Shown one piece after another: positions 5,212 to 53,999 of a stretch of DNA of 64,000 nucleotides. The stretch's first letter is position 1; every line of letters begins with the position of its first letter. Both the position numbers and the translations under genes were made by a program. The DNA is from Mobula hypostoma (taxonomy: Eukaryota). The notes beneath the pieces were generated by a model. That model was not told the DNA's origin, ran no database searches, and saw nothing but the letters and a program-made list of their open reading frames with translations. The stretch spans positions 78,494,001 to 78,558,000 of the forward strand of contig NC_086097.1 in assembly GCF_963921235.1 (NCBI RefSeq), in the 5' to 3' direction.

Positions 5212-6199
5212 AGGTATATTGAACAAATCAAAAGAATGGTTAAAGGGGAACCTTAAGATACACAATGAACTGAGCAGGCAAAGAAATTAAGGATGGAATT
5301 GAAGCTGAAGATATGACTACTGACAGTAAAGTATCAAAAAGTATGGAGGCTCAAAAGGTAGAATAAAATGAGAAGGCAGAAAAGGATTACAGAGACAAGA
5401 TGGAATTTAGCCATTTAATTACAATGAAGCCACTATAAATTGGCATGTATATTAATAATAAGTAAATAGAACTCAGAGAAAGTGTAAATAAAGAGTCTTG
5501 ATTGAACTCTATTTCACAGTGGATTAAGACCAAAACTCAACTCATTTTTAATTACGAAATTGCATTTGATTTAGCCTTAGAGACTGACCGACTATGGATG
5601 TGATGAGTTTATTGATTAAGGCTGGAAGTTACGGTAAGCTTTATGACAGAAGACAATGACTTTAGATATCTTACTTGGAAGAATTCCACAGTCAGAGATA
5701 GAAATAAAATAGCAATTTAACTATGTAGGGAGGCCAAGAGGAACTGTGGTTTTATTGAACTAGAAGCTTTCAAAATGGTGACATTTTCTGTTCAAATAAC
5801 GTCACCAAAGATAAGAAATACTTTCCACCTGACTGAACATTGCAGAAGTAGGAAGAGATGAGAACTTACAGTAGACTAGATAAACAAGAACAGAGCTTCT
5901 AAGTCTGAAACCTGAATATTTTCAAACTAGACATCCATTAACATATGCTTCAAGATATATTACCCAGGATTGTCAACCTATGTGCAACCTTCTCATGCAT
6001 TCAGAGGGAATGAATGGCTTACAGAATTGGAAGGCTGTGAGGAATTAGTGCTAAAGCGGGGGCTGTTCATTGAATAACAATGCTTATCGTGAAGACAATG
6101 TAGCATCATTAGATATGCTCAGGCTAGAGGAGCAACACCTCATATTCCATCTAGGTAGTCTACAACCTGATGGCATTAAAATCAATTTCTTCAACTTCT

Positions 6200-6954
6200 A
6201 TACGAGGAAATTTGCAGATGCTGGAATTTCAAGCAACACACACAGAAGTTGCTGGTGAACGCAGCAGGCCAGGCAGCATCTCTAGGAAGAGGTACAGTCG
6301 ATGTTTCGGGCCGAGACCCTTCATCAGAACTAACTGAAAGAAGCGCTAGTAAGAGATTTGAAAGTGGGAGGGGGAGGGGGAGATCCTAAATGATAGGAGA
6401 AGATAGGAGGGAATTCCCATTCTGATATGTCTATCCACGGTCTCCTCTACTGTAAAGATGAAGCCACACTCAGGTTGGAGGAACAGCACCTTATATTCCG
6501 TCTGGGTAGCCTCCAACCTGATGGCATGAACATTGACTTCTCTAACTTCCGTTAGTGCCCCACCTCCCCCTCGTACCCCATCTGTTATTAATTTATTTGT
6601 ATACACACATTCTTTCTCTCTCTCTCTCTCCTTTTTCTCCCTCTGTCCCTCTCACTATACCCCTTGCCCATCCTCTGGGCTTCCCCCCCCTTCTTTTCTT
6701 TCTCCCTCAGCCTCCCGTCCCATGATCCTCTCATATCCCTTTTGCCAATCAACTGTCCAGCTCTTGGCTCCATCCTTCCCCCTCCTGTCTTCTCCTATCA
6801 TTTCAGATCTCCCCCTCCCCCTCCCACTTTCAAATCTCTTACTATCTCTTCTTTCAGTTAGTCCTGACGAAGGGTCTCAGCCCGAAACATCAACTGTACC
6901 TCTTCCTAGAGATGCTGCCTGGCCTGCTGCGTTCACCAACAACTTTTATGTGTG
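6200..6954. mobile_element. Penelope-like element with inverted pseudo-LTRs
   Basis: Arms ~6232-6411 and ~6780-6954 are inverted copies, with a GIY-YIG C-terminus between them; 14-bp TSD tttcttcaacttct at 6186-6199 and 6955-6968. Confidence 0.88.
6855..6897 (+). ncRNA. Minimal type I hammerhead ribozyme motif (PLE pLTR)
   Basis: agtc-CTGACGA-agggtctcagccc-GAAAC-atc-aact; mirror copy on the minus strand at ~6294-6335. Confidence 0.7.
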
Positions 6955-7319
6955 TTTCTTCAACTTCTGGTAATTTTTTCTCCTCCCCTTCTCTCTTCTT
7001 CATTTCCCCACTCTGCCTCCTGCCTCTTCTCCTCACCTGCCTATCACAAATGATATAAATAGAATGTGGATCATAAATTTATCATTTATTAGTCACATTG
7101 TGTTCTGTTGTTTAAAAACTGTACAGCAGCCCTTTACTGTAATAAAACATTTGTTAATTCATGTCATGAAATAATCGACACAGAAAATCAGAACTGATAA
7201 GCAACTAATATCCATGACACTAAAACAGTTTTACAAATGCAGATTACTTTTTCCTATGCAAAGAATTAATGGGAATAGATTTCCAGTAAAAACTCCATGG
7301 AAATAACTCAGAAAATGTG

Positions 7320-7950: not shown

Positions 7951-8719
7951 ACTCCATATTATCGATTTAATAGAATTGTCAATTTCTACACACATCTTTG
8001 AATTTTAGGAATGGCAAAAAGAGACTAGAACAGGCAAAGATAGAAGTTCTCCTCAAAGGTAACAATGCAACAGGATAGAAATGTGCCAATGAAAATTTGC
8101 ATAAGAATGACATTGGCATTTGCTCTCCTCTAGAGTAATGAAGTAAATACAAACTCAAAGCAAAGTTATGCCTGTTCAGACTTCAGCAACATAAAATTGT
8201 GTCGCAATAAATTAGGTTAACTGATTCAGTATGCTGCTGAAGGCTAGATCTGTGTCATTCAAGTCTGGTGACCCAGGCCTGTACCAGAAAACCAGGTATG
8301 ATTTGCGGAGACGAGGAAATCTGCAGATGCTGGAAATTCAAGCAACACACATAAAATGCTCATGGAACGCAGCAGGCCAGGCAACATCTATAGGAAAAAG
8401 TTCAGGCGACGTTTCAGGCCGAGACTCTTCATCAGGACTAACTGAAAGAAGAGATAGTAAGAGATTTAAAAGTGGGAGGGGGAGGGATGAAGCTAAGAGC
8501 TGGAAAGTTGATAAGTTGATTGGCAAAAGGCTGGAGAAGGGAGAGGATCATGGGATAGGAGGCCTAGGGAAAAAGAGAGGGGGAGGGGGGCACCAGAGGA
8601 AGATGGAGAGCAGGTAAGGAGTTATTGTGAGAGGGACAGAGAGAAAAAAAAGAGAGAGAAAAAAGAAAAATCTAATTAATTAATTAATAAGGGATGGGAT
8701 AAGAAGGGGAGGAGGGGCA

Positions 8720-9193
8720 TTAACGGAAGTTTGAGAAGTCAATGTTCATGCCATCAGGTTGAAGGCTACCCAGATGGAATATAAGGTGTTGTTCCTCCAA
8801 CCTGAGTGTGGCTTCATCTTGACAGTAGAGGAGGCCATGGATGGACATAGCAGAATGGGAATGGGACATGGAATTAAAATGTGTTGCCACTGGGAGATCC
8901 TGCTTTCTCTGGCAGACAGAGTGTAGATGTTCAGTGAAACAGTCTCCCAGTCTGCGTCGGGTCTCGCCAATATATAGAAGGCTGCACTGAGAGCACCAGA
9001 TGCAGTATATCACACCAGCCGACTCACAGGTAAAGTGTCGCCTCACCTGGAAGGACTGTCTGGGGCCCTGAATGGTGGTGAGGGAGGAAGTGTAAGGGCA
9101 CTTATTCCGCTTACAAGGATAAGTGCCAGGAGGGAGATCGTGGGAAGGGGATGGGGGGGGGACGAATGGACAAGGGAGTCGCGTAAGAAGCAA
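8720..9193 (-). pseudogene. PLE GIY-YIG endonuclease domain (5'-truncated)
   Basis: HFTCESAGVIYCIWCSQCSLLYIGETRRRLGDCFTEH...PVATHFN...RLEEQHLIFHLGSLQPDGMN. Confidence 0.9.
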
Positions 9194-9432
9194 TCTCTCT
9201 GGAAAGCAGAAAGGGGGGGGTAGGAAAAGATATGCTTGGTGGTGGGATCCCGTTGGAGGTGGAGGAAGTTACGGAAAATTATATGTTGGGCCTGGAGACT
9301 GGTATCCAGCCTTATCAATCAACTTATGAACTTTCCAGCTCTTGGCTTCATCCATCCCCCTCCTGTCTTCTCCTATCATTTCAGATCTCCCCCTCCCCCT
9401 CCCACTTTCAAATCTCTTACTAGCTCTTCTTT

Positions 9433-9475
9433 CAGTTAGTCCTGACGAAGGGTCTCGGCCCGAAACATCATCTGT
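9433..9475 (+). ncRNA. Hammerhead ribozyme motif
   Basis: agtc-CTGACGA-agggtctcggccc-GAAAC; mirror copy at ~8405-8445 (-). Confidence 0.7.
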
Positions 9476-10360
9476 CCTTCTTCCTATAGATGCTGCCTGG
9501 CCTGCTGCGTTCCACCAGCATTTTGTGTGTGTTGCTATGATTTGTGGAGGGCTATTTCAAGGCCGAAGAGACAATTTCAAACGAGGTTGGAGGCAACATC
9601 GGATGCACGGCAACTCTGGCAGGGCTTATAAGACATTACTTCCTACAAAGTGAAACCCAATTGCATGAATGGCAGCGATGCTTCACTACCAGATGAACTC
9701 AATACCTTCTATGCCTGCTTTGAAAGGGAGAACACAACTACAGCTGAGAAGATCCTGCTACACCTGATGACCCTGTGATCTCTGTCTTAGAGGCTGATGT
9801 TAGGCTGTCTTTAAAGACAGTGACCCTCAGAAGGCAGAAGGTCCTGATAATGTACCTGGTAAGGTTCTGAAAACCTGTGCCAACCAACTAGTGGGAGTAC
9901 TCAAGGATATTTTCAACCTCTCCCTGCTATGGGTGGAAGTTCCCACTTGCTTCAAAAAGGCAATAATTATGCCAGTGCCCAAGAAGAATAATGTAAGCTG
10001 CCTTAATGACTGTCGCCCAGTAGCACTCACGTCGAACAGTGATGAAATGCTTTGAGAGATTGGTCATGAATAGACTGAACTCCTGCCTCAGCAAGGATCT
10101 GGACCCATTACAATTTGCCTATCGCCACAATAGGTCAACGGCAGACACAATGTCAGTGGCTCTCCACACGGCTTTGGACCACCTGGACAACACAAACACC
10201 TATGTCAGGATGCTGTTCTTCTACTATAGCTCAGCATTTAATACCATCATTCCCATTATCCTGATTGAGATGTTAGAGAACCTGGGCCTCTGTACCTCCC
10301 TCTGCAATTGGATCCTCGACTTCCTAACTGGAAGACCACAATCTGTGCGGATTGGTGATT

Positions 10361-11404: not shown

Positions 11405-12630
11405 AAATGTCTATCGACATCTTTCATAAACCTACCAATTCCCACTACTATCTTGACTATACATCTTCCCATCCTGTCTTCTGTAAAAATGCTATTTTCT
11501 TTTCTCTGTTCCTTCATCTCTGCCACATCTGTTCCTAGGATGAGGCTTTTCTTTCCAGGACATCAGAGACGTCCTCCTTCTTAAAAAAAAAGGAGTTTCC
11601 ATCCCTCCATCACTGATGCTGCTCTCACCTGCATCTCCTCCATTTCCCAGACATCCACACTCACCCCATCTTCCCACCACCTTAACAGGGATAGACTTCC
11701 TCTTTTCCTAACCTAATACCCATGACCTTTCACATCCAACACTTCTTTCTCCGCAGCTTCCATCAAAGTTCCATCAACTATCACCAAGCATATCTCTACC
11801 TCCCATTCTCCGCTTTCCACAGGGATCGAGCCTTCCATAATTCCCTTGTCTATTCATCCCTCCCCACTAATCTCCCTGCTGGCACTTATCCCTGCAAGTG
11901 GCCAAAGTTCTATACCTGCCCATTCATCTCCTCTGTCACCTTCACTGAGGGCCCTAAACAGTCCTTACAGGCGAGGCAACACTTAACCTACAAATCTGTT
12001 GGGCTTGTCTATTGTATCTGGTGTTCCCCATGCGGCATCCCCTACATTGGTGAGATCTGTCATAAATTGGAGGATTGCTTTGTCAAGCACCTCCACACCA
12101 TCCACCAAAGCGGTACTTCCTGATGGCCAACCATTTTAATAACTATTCCCATTCCCGTTCCCGTTCCGACATGTCGGTCCACGGCATTCTCATGCCATGA
12201 CAAGGCCACTCTCAGGGCGGAGAGGCAATACTTCATTTTCCATCTGGGTAGCCTCCAACCTGATGGCATGAACATTGATTTCTCCTTCCGGTTAAAAAAA
12301 CCCTCCCCTTCCCTCTTCCTCTATTCCCCACTCTGGCCTCTTACCTCTTCTAACCTACCTATTACCTCCTCTGGTGCCTCTCCTTCTTCCCTTTCTCCCA
12401 TGGTCCATTCTCCTCTCCTATCGGATTAATTCCTCTTTAGCCCTTAACCTTTCCCACCCACCTGGCTTTACCTATCACCTTCTAGCTAACTCTCCTTCAC
12501 CTCCCCCCATCTTTTTATTCTGGTGCCTCCCCGCTTCCTTTCCAGTCCTGAAGAAGGGTCTCTGCCTGAAACGTCAACCTTAAATGCTTCCTGACCTGCT
12601 GAGTTCCTCTAGCATTTTGTGTGCATCACT
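11405..12630 (+). mobile_element. Penelope-like element (RT C-terminus, GIY-YIG, pLTR with hammerhead)
   Basis: LVYCIWCSPCGIPYIGE; LQPDGMNIDF; agtc-CTGAAGA-agggtctctgcct-GAAAC-GTC at 12544-12575. Confidence 0.88.
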
Positions 12631-14898: not shown

Positions 14899-15857
14899 TC
14901 AGAGAAGCACAATCCATCTGTTGCTGTGATTGGTGGCGAAAGCATCATTGATTTTCTGGATGTCAAGTGCTTTGGTCCCCCGGCTGTTTATGGCCAACTG
15001 GGCCAAGTTGCTGTTCCGAGCATCACCGCTGCTATTCCTTAGGTAGTTTTTGAGGTGTCTGAGGCAAGAGAAACTCCGTTTGCATGAGGCAGATGTCACA
15101 GGTAGAGTCAGTGATATGCAGATTAGTTTATATAAATCTATAAATGCATCGCAGTAGGGTTTCATTGGAGCTAGAAATTCCACTGTGTCATTCACTGTCT
15201 GTCCTTGCTGGAGACTCAACCACTGCTCTCATATACTCACGATTTTCTTGGACAATCTTTGCATGTCCTTTGCCAAGCATATTTCCCAATCTTGAACCGT
15301 CTTGTTTTCTCAATCTGAATTCGGCCCATGCCTCCATAGCAAACTTCTGAGCTGCACTTACACGGTGGGTTTTGAAAGCTGTTGTAGCTTTCCGCCAGTT
15401 GCGGTAACCGGTGACAGTGAAGGTAGACTCAGAATGGAAACCATGTTCTCCACACAGGAAATGCCTGTATGCGAAGCAGAACGTAATATCTTTCATGATC
15501 GAATATTCCAGCCAGTCAAAACAGCCACGAATAAAACTCCTTTGCTGATTGCCAAACTGTTGCGAGCAGCGAAGGGTACTTTTTCAATGCTGGCCAACGG
15601 GGTCCTTCCTCAGGTTGCTGGCTAACATCGCTAACAGTATTCCCACTAGCACCAAGAGCAGCTTCATCCATGTTCTCTTCCGAATCCCACTCCATTTCTT
15701 GTTCCTCTACTTCGCCCTCACACTCCTTCGATGAACTGCTGTCGTCCTCATCCCCACTTACTTCTTTCTGCATGTCACTTTCAATTAAGACAGGCTCAGG
15801 CTGAGACACCACTGATTCCTCTGGATGAGGTCGTTTTCTCACTAAAAATCGATCCAT
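14899..15857 (-). pseudogene. hAT transposase remnant: TTF-type zinc finger joined to the hATC dimerisation domain
   Basis: YSWL..DITFCFAYRHF..GYRNWRKATTAFKTH, then LPVTSASCKRSFSCLRHLKNYLRNS..SNLAQLAIN; frameshifted, catalytic core absent. Confidence 0.88.
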
Positions 15858-15916
15858 TTTTCATGCCGCCAAAATAATACACGTGGTAGGCCAACACTAG
15901 CTTGTAAAAGCACAAT

Positions 15917-20450: not shown

Positions 20451-20995
20451 CAAATTAATTACCCCCATGAAACAAGTTTGAATACAAATTATAAACCCAA
20501 ACAACCACTATTTTGCCTATTTTCGATCTGCATTTAAAAGTCTATGTTTCCATTCACGTAATCCCTTAAGTTCCTGCCTGCTATGAACTAGCAACTGCAG
20601 TACTCATCATTATTGTTAAGAAAAAAAATCCCATATCAAACATTACTATTTATAACATGGAATTCAATAGCAAATGGGGTTTTGCATTTTAGAAAGTCAC
20701 AATACAGAATGCTTTTGAGGAAATGCAACCTCTCTGTAACACAGGGTTTACCTGTACTTACAAATCTCCACCAATTCAACTTGTTTGAATCTCCTAGAGT
20801 TTATTATCCCTCTTACCCACAGCTCACTACATCTAAGTTTTGAGTCATCTGCAAATTTGGAAATTACACCTTACACACCCAAGTTCCGATCAATAATATG
20901 TATTAAGTAAAGCAGTGGCCCTAATATAGGAGAAACCTTGGGGAATTCACCTGTACTTTTGTTTCCAGTCTGAAAAATAACCTTTCATTATTCCT

Positions 20996-21392
20996 CAAAC
21001 AACAGGAATTCTGCAGATGCTGGAAATTCAAGCAACACACATCAAAGTTGCTGGTGAACGCAGCAGGCCCGGCAGCACCTCTAGGAAGAGGTGCAGTCAA
21101 CGTTTCAGGCCAAGACCCTTCATCAAGACTAACTGAAGGAAGAGTGAGTAAGAGATTTGAAAGTTGGAGGGGGAGGGAGAGATCCAAAATGATAGGAGAA
21201 GATAGGAGAAGACAGGAGGGGGAGGGATGGAGCCATTTTGGATCTCCCCCTCCCCCTCCAACTTTCAAATCTCTTACTCACTCTTCCTTCAGTTAGTCCT
21301 GACGAAGGGTCTTGGCCTGAAACGTCGACTGCACTGCTTCCTAGAGATGCTGCCTGGCCTGCTGCGTTCACCAGCAACTTTGATGTGTGTTG
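20996..21392. mobile_element. Non-coding palindromic Penelope derivative (two inverted pLTRs)
   Basis: ~160-bp arms 21031-21191 and 21234-21394 with a ~42-nt spacer; 14-bp TSD ctttcattattcct at 20982-20995 and 21393-21406. Confidence 0.9.
21290..21331 (+). ncRNA. Best-preserved minimal hammerhead ribozyme
   Basis: Stem I agtc/gact, core CTGACGA, stem II ggg..cct, GAAAC-GTC with palindromic stem III; predicted cleavage after 21326; mirror copy ~21094-21135 (-). Confidence 0.8.
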
Positions 21393-22068
21393 CTTTCATT
21401 ATTCCTTGCTGTTTCCTGTTATTTAGCCAATGATTTATCCATTTGCTACAGCTCTATTTATTCTATGGTCTTCAATGTAGATAACAACCCTTCTGTGTGG
21501 TAGACTATCAAATGGGGACGTATGCAACTTGTGTATCCTCAAGTGGTGTGGCTCTGCATCAGAATCAGGTTTAATATCACAGGCATACTATATGTCAAGA
21601 AATTTGTTGTTTCAGGACACACAGAATAACATCACTGGCCATGTAATGCTTATTTTTGAGTGGAGTAACAGTCACATTGTTTCCAGGAGCAATCAATGCA
21701 ACTTAGTCTGCTCAGTTCATTACTGGATTGTGACCTTTATCAAATGAGCTTCATCAAAATGACTCCCATCCCCACCTTTTCGAGGCACAGGCTCAAGCCC
21801 ACTCTTTCAGCATAGCCACAGCAACAGTTCAATCTGCTTCATCACAATTCACCAACGTTAACAAATTCCAACCTCTTTCTTCCTAACCATGGTGTAGCAC
21901 AATCTCATCTACAATTTCCCAGCCCAGCCATAACACTAGTTTAGCTCCTTCTCCTTTCACTTATGCTACAGCACAAGATCTGATCCTTTTCTTTTCTCTC
22001 TGACCACGCCATAGATTTAATTTCACTCTTTGCACTCAGGCCACACCACAAAATAATTCCTTTTTAAG

Positions 22069-22813
22069 GTGGAGGATTACAAATACCTGGGGATACGAAT
22101 TGACAATAAACTGGACTGGTCAAAGAACACTGAGGCTGTCTACAAGAAGGGTCAGAGCTGTCTCTATTTCCTGAGGAGACTGAGGTCCTTTAACATCTGC
22201 TGGACGATGCTGAGGATGTTCTACGAGTCTGTGGTGGCCAGTGCTATCATGTTTGCTGTTGTGTGCTGGGGTAGCAGGCTGAGGGTAGCAGACACCAACA
22301 GAATCAACAAACTCATTCGTAAGGCCAATGATGTTGTGGGGATGGAACTGGACTCTCTCACGGTGGTGTCTGAAAAGAGGATGCTGTCTAAGTTGCATGC
22401 CATCTTGGTCAATGTCTCCCATCCACTACATAATGTACTGGGTGGGCACAGGAGTACATTCAGCCAGAGACTCATTCCACCGAGATGCAGCACAGAGCGT
22501 CATAGAAAGTCATTCCTGCCTGTGGCCATCAAACTTTACAACTCCTCCCTTGGAGGGTCAGACACCCTGAGCCGATAGGCTGGTCCTGGACTTATTTCAT
22601 AATTTACTGGCATAATTTACATATTACTATTTAACTATTTATTACTATTTTTCTATTACTATTCTATTACTATTTATTATTTCCATGACTATTACTATTT
22701 ACTAATAGTAGTATTACTATTACTATTTCTATTACTATTTATTATTTATGGTGCAACTGTAACGAAAACCAATTTCCCCCGGGATCAATAAAGTATGACT
22801 ATGACTATGACTA
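22069..22813 (+). mobile_element. Young Rex1/Babar-type LINE 3' end
   Basis: Open 169-aa frame (YKYLGIRIDNKLDW, LYFLRRLRSF, HPLH, SFLPVAIKLYN); AATAAA and (atgact)n tail. Confidence 0.88.
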
Positions 22814-26106: not shown

Positions 26107-26800
26107 TGGCAAGAGTTGGGATATTGATTTACAGCTGAACATAATGTTGAGTAGAACGCATTTGGAGTATTGTGTGCGGGTCTGGTAGCTGTACTATAGG
26201 AAGCCTGTAATAAATCTAGAGAGGTTGCAGAAAGCAGCTACAAAGATACTGTTACAAGGGTCCTGAAGAAGGGTATTGGCCCAAACGTCCACTCTTTGTT
26301 CATTTCCATGGATGCTACCTGACCTGCTGAGTTCTTCCAGCATCTTGTGTATGTTACAAGGTACTGCCTGGACTGGAGGGAACTGAGTAACAAGATGAGA
26401 TTAGGTATGCTAATTCTGTTTTCCCTGGAGCTAAGGGGTGATCTTAGAGAGGTTTATAAAATCTTGAGGAGCATATGCAGGGTAAATAGTCTTTTTTTTT
26501 TCTCTAGGGTAAGGGAACCTAAGAGTAGAGAGCATAAATTTAAGGTGAGAGGGAAAGATTTAAAGGGATCAGAGTTGTGAGATATTTTTAACACAGGATA
26601 GTAGAACAAGCTGCCTGAGGAAGTAGTGAAAGTGGGTATGATTACATGTAAAAGAGATTTGGATAGGCACATGGATAGGAAAGGTTTAGAGAGATATAGA
26701 CCAAACTCAGGGCAAATGGGACAAGCTTTGATAGACATTTTGGTTGACATGGATGAGTTGGGCCACAAGGCCCATTTCCTAGCTGTATAACTCTGACTCT
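26107..26800 (+). mobile_element. CR1 3' fragment containing a short PLE hammerhead insert
   Basis: HLEYCV, RGDLREVYKI; insert 26260-26351 (gtc-CTGAAGA-agggtattggccc-aaacGTC) flanked by the duplication tgttacaagg. Confidence 0.8.
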
Positions 26801-30440: not shown

Positions 30441-31319
30441 CCAATGTCCAATCCTGATCAAATCTATAGCTAATTAACATATTAGTGCAACTTTTGCAAT
30501 TTCAGCTGACAGCGATCACAGCATTTTTAACATAGAGATAGTTCAGATTATGGATTGTTCTTGGACCACAATGTAATCTAAGGACAGGTTCCAAGGGGCC
30601 AGATTTGAGAGATTCAACCTGAACTATAAAAATAGGCATAGAAGAAAATTGTAAAATTACCACAACTCTGAACCTTAAAACCAAAAATCAAGCACGTTTA
30701 ATCAATGGTGACTGCATTTCAATTTTACATTCGTTTTTGGAATCTGTTAATAAACAGCCCATAAGGTACCTAGTCATGTGGGCTACTAATTTTTAAAAAA
30801 ATGTTGACCCCCCCGCCCAATCTGATTACTTCAATCAAATACATATCATTATTTGGTTTAATGACAGCGATTGATTATGATATATATAATGAATACCCCA
30901 ACTAATAAAACAATTACCCTGTTTTTAATAATTTATTTTCATTGTCTGAAGGACATGTGAAACTATCCAATAAATATTTTTGTTCCAAGTTTATATTAAG
31001 AAAATGACAGGTCACATAGATTACTTATTGAACAACTGTGCCAGCTGTGATTCATAACCAGAGCTATAAACCAAGATTATAATTGTGAGAGAGCTATAAT
31101 GCCAGAAAATGGAACCTGATGTGTATACCTAGAAAGTAATTTGTAACTGTAAATAAGATCAATAAATAAATGTGATGTTGAAACATACATTAAATTTTGT
31201 GAATGTGATATTCAGCACAGAGGATGGTTACCTACTGCAAGAAAACATGCTGGGTTTTATTCAGGAAAACAGAAACAGGCTGCTTGAATAAGCAGACAAG
31301 TAGAAGACAAAATTTAATA

Positions 31320-31430
31320 CAGTGACACACACAAAGTGCTGGAGGAACCCAGCAGGCCAGGCAGCATCCAATGAAAACAGAAAACAGTCGTCGCTTCAGG
31401 CCAAGACCCTTCATCAGGAATGGAAAAAAA
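31320..31430 (-). mobile_element. PLE pLTR fragment with degenerate hammerhead
   Basis: Reverse complement reads cctgatgaagggtcttggcctgaagcgac; similar fragments at ~47045-47180 and ~53440-53552. Confidence 0.75.
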
Positions 31431-45912: not shown

Positions 45913-47980
45913 TAGAAATTGGCGGCAAGATTGAAGAGCCATGACGCTGTATGGAGCACCTTAAGACCTGGGGGGAAAGTCAAGGGACAGAGCAGTATTC
46001 CTCCCCCGCACCCCCGGGTTGGACTCCCGAAGATGGGACGCTGACCCAGAAGGAGGACCCGGGAACTGAGCATCATGCTTTCCCAGGAAACCCAACGGAG
46101 TGAGCATACCGAAGCTTCCCAAACCATGGGGACACAGTGCAGTGCATCACTCACCTCCCCTGTGGCCTGCCACTCCAGCCATGGGAGGGCGGGCAACATG
46201 GCAGGCACCACCGATCTACCGGAACAAGAAGAAGACCAACGTTAATTAATGCCACAAGGTTCACCCTGAAGTTCCCAGATACAATGGTACAGTCACCTGG
46301 AGACTTACCTGGTACTAGTCAAACTTGCCACATGGCACAAGTGGTGGAGACCTACCAGACAGCAGTGCACCTTGCCCTAGTGCTGGAGAGGGCTGCCCTG
46401 CAGGCCCTGGACCTAGCGCCAGGGCCCTCATAGCAGTGTTTTGAACAGAGGCCACTGGAGGAATCAATGAGGGAGTACTTGTCAGCAGATGGTGCCATGT
46501 GGGAGAAAGCCAAGGAGCATTCATAGCAGATCTCCACCAGTATGCATGGCATGGCTACCCCCAGTTCCCTACCGTGGCCCAGGAAGAGCTTATCTGTCAT
46601 CATGAACCGAATGTTTGCCACACATTTTTAAAAAATATATAACACAGGAATTTCTGTTTGCTGTTCAGGCCCAACTTTTAGTGCATGGCCCATGTTATGT
46701 AAGGAGAAAAAATGTTAAATGGACATTGCACAAGAATCTCTGCTTATTTTATGTAGTATCCTTCAGGCATGCACACATGAGGCACAACAAAAAGATGGAC
46801 AACAAACATGGGAACATTGTAATTGTGAATCCTATTTAATTTGTAAACAAATGTGGACATACTGCAAAAACCTGACGTTAAGCATGAAAATTCCACACTT
46901 TGCAATAGTCTGCAAACAAAAGCAACAATATGAAAGATGATTATTCTCATTTGATCAGGATATAGTTTGTAATACCAAAGTTATAAGTTTAAGTATATTA
47001 GAGGTATATCATGATATCAAAATATTCACTAAAATATTATAAACATGAGAACGTCTGCAGGTGTGAGTAAATCCAGAGCAATATACACAGAATGCTGGAG
47101 GACCTCAGCAAGTCAGGCAGCATCTATGGAAATAAATAAACAGTTGATGTTTCAGGCAGAGACCCCTCTTCAGAACTTAAAATTTCATTAAAATATTAAG
47201 TATCAGAAATTTTAAAGAGTAATTTGAACTTCTGTGAGAATCATTAACTCATTATAAATCAACTTCTTCACTTTCATTAACAAAAAAATATGCTTTCAAA
47301 CTGTGAACTGGATTTAGGCAAAGAAATTATGTAACATTTGTAAGAAGAAAAATTTTGCACATGTACAAATTTGTTTTCATAAACCTAGCTGTTACCAATT
47401 GTGATAATGTTAAACATGAAAACTGTTCAAGGTCCAGCTGGATTCCCAGTCAGAGACTGAGTGGCCTTCATGCAAAGCCAAACCATTAAAATGTGGAGCC
47501 AACTCTCACTGAATTGCAAAGGCCATGGGGGCTTTTACTAGTAAACAAATTGCTATATCCATCAGAATGGATTTTAATGCTTGGTATTTTCTTTTATACA
47601 TCCACAAAAGAAAAAGACAGGATATTGCAACTTAAGGAGAGGCTATTCAGCCCATTATGTATATGTTGATTCTTTCAGTGAGTAATTTCATTAGTCCCAC
47701 TACACTTTCTTCATCTCCCCAAATCACACATTGTTCGTTTTTTTCCACTTTGGGCATTTGTCCAATTCCCTTTATAGTTGAGGTGTGCATTCCAAATCTT
47801 AACTACTTGTCCCATAGAAGCTTTCTCCTCAAGATTCCTCATGTCCTTTTGCAAATAGATTCCCTCTCATAGCAGTGCAATGCACCTAAGGAACTTAATA
47901 ATTCATTGGTGGACACAGTAGGTCGCATCAGAATGAATGAATCATTCACTTCTTAGGTACATCATGCTGCCATGAAGATA

Positions 47981-48559
47981 CACACAGTGGCCACTTTATT
48001 AGTTATTTCCTGTACCTAATAAAGTAGCAACTGAGTGTTATGTTCATGGTCTTTGCTGCTGTAGCCCATTCACTTCAAGGTTCGGTGTATTGTGCATTCA
48101 GGGATATTCTTTGGCATGCTGCTGTTTCAATACATGGTTATTTGAGTTACTGTCATCTTCCTGTCAGCTTGATCCAGTCTGGCCATTCTCCTCTGACCTC
48201 CCTCATTAACAAGATGTTTTCGCCAACAGAACTGGGTGTTTTTTTTTTGTTTTCAAACCATTCTCTGTAAACCTCATTATAACTGACACCTGCAGATTAA
48301 TTATCTAATATTGCATGAAAATCCCAGGAAATCAGCAGTTTCTGAGATACTCAAATCACTCTCAAACAATTATTTCATGGCCAAAGAAAGTTACATCACG
48401 TTTCTTTCCCATTCTGATGTTTGCTCTGAACAAGCACTGAACAATTTGACCATATCTGCAAACATTTATGTATTGAATTGCTGCCACATGGTTGGCTGAT
48501 TAGAAATTTACATTGAGAAGCAGCTGTACGGGTGTATCTAATAAAGTGGCTACTGAGTG
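47981..48559. mobile_element. Tc1/mariner-derived MITE
   Basis: TA-flanked TIRs cacacagtggccactttattag / ctaataaagtggctactgagtg; interior resembles an antisense Tc1 transposase remnant. Confidence 0.8.
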
Positions 48560-53355: not shown

Positions 53356-53999
53356 ATTTCCTTGTATCAACTTCTATATATGAGTTCAGGACTTGTATTT
53401 AAAGCAAAAAAGAACTTTTTTAAACTCAAAGACTTAACAGATGTTGGAAATACAGAGCAACACACAAAATGCTGTGGGAACTCGGCAGGTCAGGAAGCAT
53501 CTGTCAAGAGGAATAAACTGTCGATGTTTTGGGCCAAGACCTTTCATCAGGAAATGTGGTGAACACCCTTCACTACTTTCATAAACTACTTACAGTACAT
53601 TTGCACAGTACCTTTAACACCTAAGATATTTTATAAGAACATTATCAATAAAATGTTTGTTATTAAGCAACAGAAAGAAGCTATTTGGACATATGACTAA
53701 CAGCTTGATCAAAAATGTGTTTTTCAATTTTGTTTTTGAATTGTTTTAAAGACTATCTAAATGATAGAACACAGTGACACAAAAACAGTGAAGTTTAAAG
53801 AGGAGAGGCCAGAATTGTTGGTGAGGCTGCACTGTGTATATCTATAATCACACTTTTATAGTAAAGATGTGATTAAACTGGAAAGAGTGAAGAAAAGATT
53901 TTTAAGGATATTGCTAGGAAGACGGCCTGAATTATAGGCAACAGTTGACGAGACTAAGTCTGATTCCTCAGAATGTATGACAATGAGTGGGCAACCTTA

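Follow-up and report, generated by a model that had tools for sequence, protein, structure and literature searches.

Within the 64,000-nucleotide stretch of Mobula hypostoma DNA analyzed here (the window), a unit of 397 bases is flanked on either side by the same 14-mer, without a mismatch (Table 1); for this direct repeat the chance expectation was 1.3e-5 matches in the search box. The unit contains two inverted arms, 21030-21191 and 21234-21395, which align without gaps and with 8 mismatches in 162 columns; a second inverted-repeat detection returned arms of 167 nt that are 94% identical and separated by 42 nt. An earlier note on this DNA had described two inverted arms of about 160 bp, a 14-bp target site duplication (TSD), and no ORF remnant, and all of this holds: the whole unit aligns with the pLTR and tail of its siblings, and the ORF piece is absent. 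The spacer of about 42 nt that the note had placed between the arms does exist, at 21192-21233, but is ordinary left-arm pLTR rather than foreign DNA; alignment with the sibling arms reveals a 10-bp tandem duplication within it. The outer ends are asymmetric, in that a tail is present on the left arm and missing from the right; the final 3 nt of the tail are also identical to the first letters of the right TSD copy. In extent the right arm falls entirely within the left. The inter-arm divergence of 4.9% corresponds to 7 events, 2 of them at CpG, and the asymmetry of the changes (6 on the left arm, 1 event on the right) is within chance. Folded as RNA, the unit gives the very stable hairpin that the note had anticipated (-312 kcal/mol, z -30).

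Table 1. Features of the focal unit, its siblings, and the surrounding window (positions are those of the window).
Feature	Position	Strand	Basis or remark
Left TSD copy, 14 bp	20982-20995	.	exact repeat of 21393-21406
Right TSD copy	21393-21406	.	exact repeat; alignment start of organism C and D contigs at 21393
Penelope tail extension, 37 nt	20996-21032	-	left arm only; as in the left ends of E1 and E2
Left arm, leftward-pointing pLTR copy	21030-21191	-	6 of 8 inter-arm differences as minority states
Spacer, the left arm pLTR continued upstream	21192-21235	-	aligns to sibling arms; family contigs contiguous there
Head-to-head junction, 2-nt microhomology CA common to both arms	21234-21235	.	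sibling sequences on both sides; contig loose ends
Right arm, tail-less rightward-pointing pLTR copy	21234-21392	+	private 2-nt change at 21335-21336
Minimal type I hammerhead	21294-21331	+	strict motif scan; layout as defined in PMC4209133
Damaged minimal hammerhead	21094-21131	-	U3 for C3, GUU triplet, G10.1·U11.1
Sibling E1, whole	6186-6968	.	exact 14-bp TSD (14/14); translation and alignments
E1 short tail-bearing inverted arm	6200-6411		alignment
E1 longer arm, tail-less, including C-terminal GIY-YIG codons	6412-6954		translation, alignment
Sibling E2, whole	8297-9549	.	TSD 13/14
E2 long arm, tail-bearing, including a GIY-YIG ORF piece	8311 to about 9302		translation
E2 short tail-less arm	about 9305-9535		
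Second, older Penelope-like family, 3′ end	11695-12623		46% amino-acid identity to E2 ORF piece
Hammerhead motif of the older Penelope-like family	12548-12572		
Lone pLTR fragments	26260-26355, 31315-31426, 47041-47177, 53438-53552		
Decayed hAT transposase pieces	14899-15860	-	Dimer_Tnp_hAT, E 8.9e-09
ORF with ALKBH8_N Pfam match	22057-22578		E 7.8e-10
68-nt hairpin	47976-48043		weak miRNA-family matches, both strands

A search of the window with the unit recovered two longer relatives, E1 and E2, together with five older pLTR-like fragments, and the six arms were then aligned. The siblings are 82-90% identical to the focal unit over the shared pLTR, and a 14-bp TSD, equal outer ends, and an adjoining inverted 5′-truncated copy are shared by all three complete insertions of the family in the window, whose centers and lengths differ from one to the next; the one-sided tails measure 37, 37, and 31 nt (focal unit, E1, and E2, as read from the alignment), and tail-type extensions are absent from the right arms of all three. 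Specifically, i) each arm of E1 carries sequence missing from the other, the tail in one case and an ORF piece in the other; ii) the short arm of E2 has about 49 nt, located between two internal repeats, that the long arm lacks; iii) translation of E2 shows GVIY-CxxC-YIG and two histidines, with a weak Pfam GIY-YIG match (E 0.032, below the curated cut-off); and iv) E2 and a related copy at 11695-12123, both of them decayed, each keep 2 of the 3 cysteines of the linker CX2-5CxxC that precedes the endonuclease in Neptune elements, and neither has the complete motif; a cysteine linker in this place suggests a family that is probably of Neptune type. In the siblings the pLTR lies downstream of a GIY-YIG endonuclease ORF with a CCHH motif, and the focal unit, itself ORF-less, is on that reading an insertion of an EN+ Penelope-like element (PLE) whose endonuclease ORF is seen through its siblings. 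No RT-coding piece of the family was identified in the 64-kb window. E1 sits in an older Penelope-like 3′ end, 6118-6198, which resumes at about 6969-7047.

Over the 144 common columns the focal arms differ from each other at 7 positions and from the sibling arms at 15-26, indicating that both focal arms come from one source subfamily. The E1 arms differ at 10 positions, E1 and E2-right at 13 and 15 (13-22 in the wider range to other arms), and the two E2 arms at 15, more than the 13 that separate E2-right from E1-right. One template subfamily per insertion would therefore be clear for the focal unit only, the closeness of the E1 arms being weak and that of the E2 arms absent. Position 7 of the hammerhead is C in the tail-less arms (21303, 6868, and 9446) and T in the tail-bearing arms (21122, 6323, and 8431), a split that may be chance since it involves a CpG site and n=3.

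A splice-pattern scan of the window, together with Pfam searches on 19 of the 81 ORFs, yielded no credible host exon, and the 19 chosen ORFs gave two Pfam matches at E 0.03-0.04, below the cut-off. We assign the ORF matching ALKBH8_N to the C-terminal portion of a LINE reverse transcriptase rather than to a host gene. A 22-nt pLTR motif had 0 loci in metagenome, viral, and prokaryote contigs, as expected for animal DNA and hence uninformative. Within the right flank of the unit, 21558-21600 is a short, very abundant repeat with high summed depth in all four of the sequencing runs aligned (see below).

The earlier note had assigned a CTGANGA..GAAAC hammerhead to each arm, with a plus copy that looked intact and a minus copy bearing core substitutions, and had recognized a Penelope-like pLTR with a minimal type I hammerhead, an identification that fits the motif definition of PMC4209133. 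The strict scan recovers the plus copy only: the minus arm reads TTGATGA rather than CTGANGA, so the motif is present on one arm and lost by a C3U change on the other, and the minus copy does carry a core substitution, as the note had said. The plus hammerhead has a stem I of 5 bp, CUGACGA, an extra A, and a stem II of 4 bp closed by G·U, followed by GAAA-CG-UC with the palindromic ACGU and no loop III; the predicted cut falls between 21326 and 21327. Its core letters are complete (C3-U4-G5-A6-N7-G8-A9, G12-A13-A14-A15.1, and an NUH triplet), those of the minus copy are not (U3), and to call the plus copy intact overstates the case, as its stem II is closed by G10.1·U11.1. The G·U replaces the G10.1-C11.1 pair in both focal arms, whereas the C form at 11.1 is present in E1 and E2-right. 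A search of Rfam gave 0 hammerhead hits; its matches, 13 of 13, were sub-threshold miRNA-type hairpin matches, all below the gathering score.

Like the minimal hammerheads (min-HHRs) described in PMC4209133, the focal copies are of type I, have an extra nucleotide between 9 and 10.1, lack helix III, and carry a palindromic 15.2-16.2 (ACGU in both focal arms) that would allow a dimer; they differ in having G10.1·U11.1 for a G-C pair which that report describes as highly conserved, and the minus copy also has U3. The same report finds min-HHRs inactive as monomers and weakly active as dimers, and in the PAc element C3G and G8C abolish cleavage (PMC11167929). Judging from this conservation, from the C3G and G8C data, and from general hammerhead biochemistry, G10.1·U11.1 and C3U would both be expected to lower cleavage activity; measured effects of G10.1/C11.1 or C3U changes are not addressed in the accessible text of PMC1636495. 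A longer stem I on the plus copy arises from the private change at 21335-21336, which also makes a 5-bp direct repeat, and we read the change as a slippage-type mutation, not as a sign of selection.

Folding predictions agree with the proposal of the earlier note that the hairpin sequesters its own ribozyme. In read-through RNA from either strand, transcription invariably reaches the antisense arm before the ribozyme, and the pair probabilities of stem II accordingly stay under 1e-18 even for a nascent chain that stops 12 nt beyond the motif. The isolated plus motif forms stems I and II, yet prefers to pair its core with the CGUC segment (-15.9 vs -7.7 kcal/mol), and the dimer geometry reaches -12.9 kcal/mol vs -41.9 for the best co-fold. 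The two hammerheads lie on opposite strands and hence cannot form a dimer within one RNA. An outward transcript from the center would avoid the hairpin, with a probability for stems I and II near 0.37 on the right arm and near 0 on the left, and would have no dimer partner in cis.

The layout thus described, two 5′-truncated pLTR copies set head to head in a 14-bp duplication, one tailed and one not, occurs three times in 64 kb and is familiar from other PLEs. An adjoining inverted 5′-truncated copy and a one-sided tail of 30-40 bp are given as typical in PMC3846280 (Arkhipova et al. 2013), PMC8557442 (Craig et al. 2021), and PMC8969392, and min-HHRs paired on opposite strands at a distance of about 100-700 bp have been ascribed to truncated PLEs (PMC4209133). 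The focal unit resembles the EN+ PLE insertions of PMC3846280 and PMC8557442 in its head-to-head pLTRs, one-ended tail, TSD, and junction palindromes; it differs from them in that both copies stop inside the pLTR and hold no coding sequence, and its TSD is 14 bp long as against 8-10 bp in the rotifer EN+ examples. How PLEs build tandem and inverted insertions is described as still undefined in PMC8557442, and none of the papers listed in our literature searches has as its subject palindromic stumps made of pLTR only, or priming from two ends in PLEs.

The best explanation, to which we give a probability of roughly 0.83, is a single decaying EN+ Penelope-like insertion made by two-ended priming and most likely inert; the unit probably records one very short, unrepeated integration of an abundant PLE rather than a new element. 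On this proposal the enzyme would nick the two target strands 14 bases apart, and reverse transcription would be primed from each of the two nicks, one cDNA beginning at the distal boundary of the tail and its counterpart at the proximal boundary; the two would abort early, after about 240 and 160 bases, and would be joined via the 2-nt microhomology. Since two cDNAs would be joined per insertion, every integration would create its own mirror image, with the pair of hammerheads carried along as passengers of the pLTR. Experimental support comes from PAc, an Anolis element of the Poseidon clade and not of this family, for which Frangieh et al. 2024 (PMC11167929) report in vitro that both strands are cut and extended, that reverse transcription starts at two sites bounding the tail, that the enzyme is predicted to be a dimer, and that the ribozyme requires protein for its activity but is dispensable for insertion, ribozyme mutants still inserting. 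In bulk, these PAc data showed no difference between the two strands in their start sites. On our reading the focal unit would be like PAc in its two start sites at the tail ends, its use of both strands, and a hammerhead that would be dispensable; that two-ended priming causes the inverted copies is our own interpretation of the PMC11167929 data.

In L1 5′ inversions, the segment that becomes inverted derives from another region of one RNA. The focal arms, by contrast, both start from one and the same end module; the sequence is thus present in duplicate, which would require two copies of the template. What is shared with L1 twin priming (PMC5668948) is priming from both target strands and an inverted segment inside the TSD.

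An unlikely alternative is that the same dead, one-off insertion arose by fold-back, a single cDNA or antisense template having primed itself near the junction, with the endonuclease resolving the tail boundary; self-priming was proposed in PMC3846280, where junction palindromes were read as its sign, and resolution of the tail by the endonuclease in PMC8557442. Taken alone the focal unit would fit such an origin, its right arm being a subset of its left and the CA of the junction being able to pair with TG at 21190-21191. Moreover, the three inversion junctions (21234, 6411, and 9302) have local palindromes of 4, 5, and 4 bp, against a random-join expectation per junction of 15-18% for at least 4 bp and 5-6% for at least 5 bp; the joint chance of about 0.001-0.002 is a post hoc figure with n=3, and these palindromes count against two-ended priming, which does not obviously predict them. 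E1, as we read its arms, nonetheless tells against simple fold-back: each arm has sequence unique to it, so neither can be a fold-back copy of the other. The approximately 49 nt present in the short arm of E2 and missing from the long arm likewise speak against self-priming, as does internal initiation at both tail boundaries, which has been seen in vitro (PMC11167929).

The earlier note had left two options, truncation plus inversion or a self-propagating mini-element, and it is the first that the family contigs favor. In run X2, to which 67,217 contigs were aligned, some of them on a second repeat, the family contigs depart from the reference at 21234 (98 loose ends) and 21235 (192) and then proceed as normal pLTR, connecting 21201/21202 to 21234/21235 on opposite strands as normal contiguous pLTR does; the junction is thus a truncation point rather than a natural RNA end. 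The three different centers in three insertions and the match with the published layout point the same way. That a non-autonomous mini-element is copied as the entire 397-bp palindrome, junction included, is therefore very improbable in our judgment. The absence of an ORF remnant and the clean TSD would suit such an element, and non-autonomous Penelope derivatives do exist (bioRxiv 10.64898/2026.07.22.740005; PMC8557442), but no second copy of the junction was found in the 64-kb window or among the matches listed (32 of 139,587 pieces), and copying of the whole would require an RNA that starts exactly at the tail-less end and is itself a 160-bp duplex. Run X2 also contains family joints at a depth of 30-300, compared with about 5-8 for single-copy flank, which represent amplified structural variants of the pLTR; the focal junction is not among the high-depth joints listed. 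Nor is the unit a non-LTR retrozyme as described in bioRxiv 10.64898/2026.07.22.740005: although non-coding, pLTR-related, and equipped with a type I hammerhead like these, it consists of an inverted pair of copies, head to head, with TSD and tail, and has none of the head-to-tail tandem monomers whose arrays allow retrozymes to form dimer ribozymes.

Related organisms place the insertion in time. Among 24 sequencing runs listed, 8 contain at least half of the words, and these come from two organisms; no RNA runs are among the holders listed, and four possible RNA runs have shares of 0.07-0.09. Four of the 24 runs (organisms A-D) were aligned, against a reference that covers 21170-22050 and thus the right flank but not the left. 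i) One contig from organism C (record 31) and one from organism D (record 7) align from precisely 21393 onwards, and the 317 and 588 letters before that point do not match the element; C and D appear to have the empty site, as judged from where these alignments start; ii) a contig from organism B (record 23) runs from 21373 across the TSD, and B probably carries the insert, the match to 20 nt of arm falling below our bridging rule of 31 nt; iii) flank divergence is 1.15% for A-B (8/695), 5.1% for A-C (27/527), and 6.0% for A-D (28/469). An empty site in C and D and a probably filled one in B would make the insertion younger than the divergence from C and D, and probably older than the A-B split. 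The arm divergence stands at the upper end of the neutral flank range, and arms that have diverged about as much as neutral flank give no sign of a conserved hairpin or of homogenization.

Contig depths further associate the unit with a subfamily of A and B. At 21287 and 21332, where the two arms agree, the window letter accounts for 73% and 66% of summed depth in organism A and for 1% or less in C. At 21335-21336, letters other than those of the window take up 92% and 98% of the summed depth of family contigs in A. The U11.1 form (21318, and 21107 on the other arm) reaches 80% in A and 76% in B as compared with 31% in C and 46% in D. All of these are shares of summed contig depth, biased in favor of the reference, and do not stand for numbers of copies. 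Read in this way, the insert is from a subfamily that expanded in the lineage of A and B, and the depths suggest that the subfamily expanded with G·U at 10.1-11.1.

That the locus has been co-opted, either as a hairpin giving small RNAs against its family or as a functional ribozyme switch, we consider extremely improbable, for although the hairpin is very stable, a minus-strand transcript would turn all 5 transitions into G·U and give an unbroken duplex of 101 bp (a one-sided pattern with a chance of about 1 in 16, hence within chance), and Penelope copies give small RNAs in rotifers, the arms have diverged at about the neutral rate, the insert is young and lineage-limited, no host gene was found in the window (a weak test), and with tens of thousands of family contigs the focal locus is not special.

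We wish to add a more tentative reading of the family as a whole, to which we would give somewhat less than even odds. If the enzyme is a dimer that nicks the strands 14 bases apart, and each insertion involves a division of labor between two start sites and two template copies, then stumps of this kind would be its footprint in vivo, and a single step would account for the inverted copy, for the tail at one end, and for a duplication constant at 14 bp; this model would replace that of self-priming. Growth of the source subfamily with a G10.1·U11.1 ribozyme, if true, would mean that an optimal ribozyme is unnecessary for transposition in vivo.

The focal locus is itself minor, since relics of this known class are very numerous, and its value is that of a tidy case of a known pattern and a clean record of what we take to be two-ended priming; E1 is the most informative copy for the mechanism. 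The young insertions of this family, with their clean 14-bp duplications and datable empty sites, provide material to separate two-ended priming from fold-back, and the same insertions could show whether the pLTR hammerhead is under selection.
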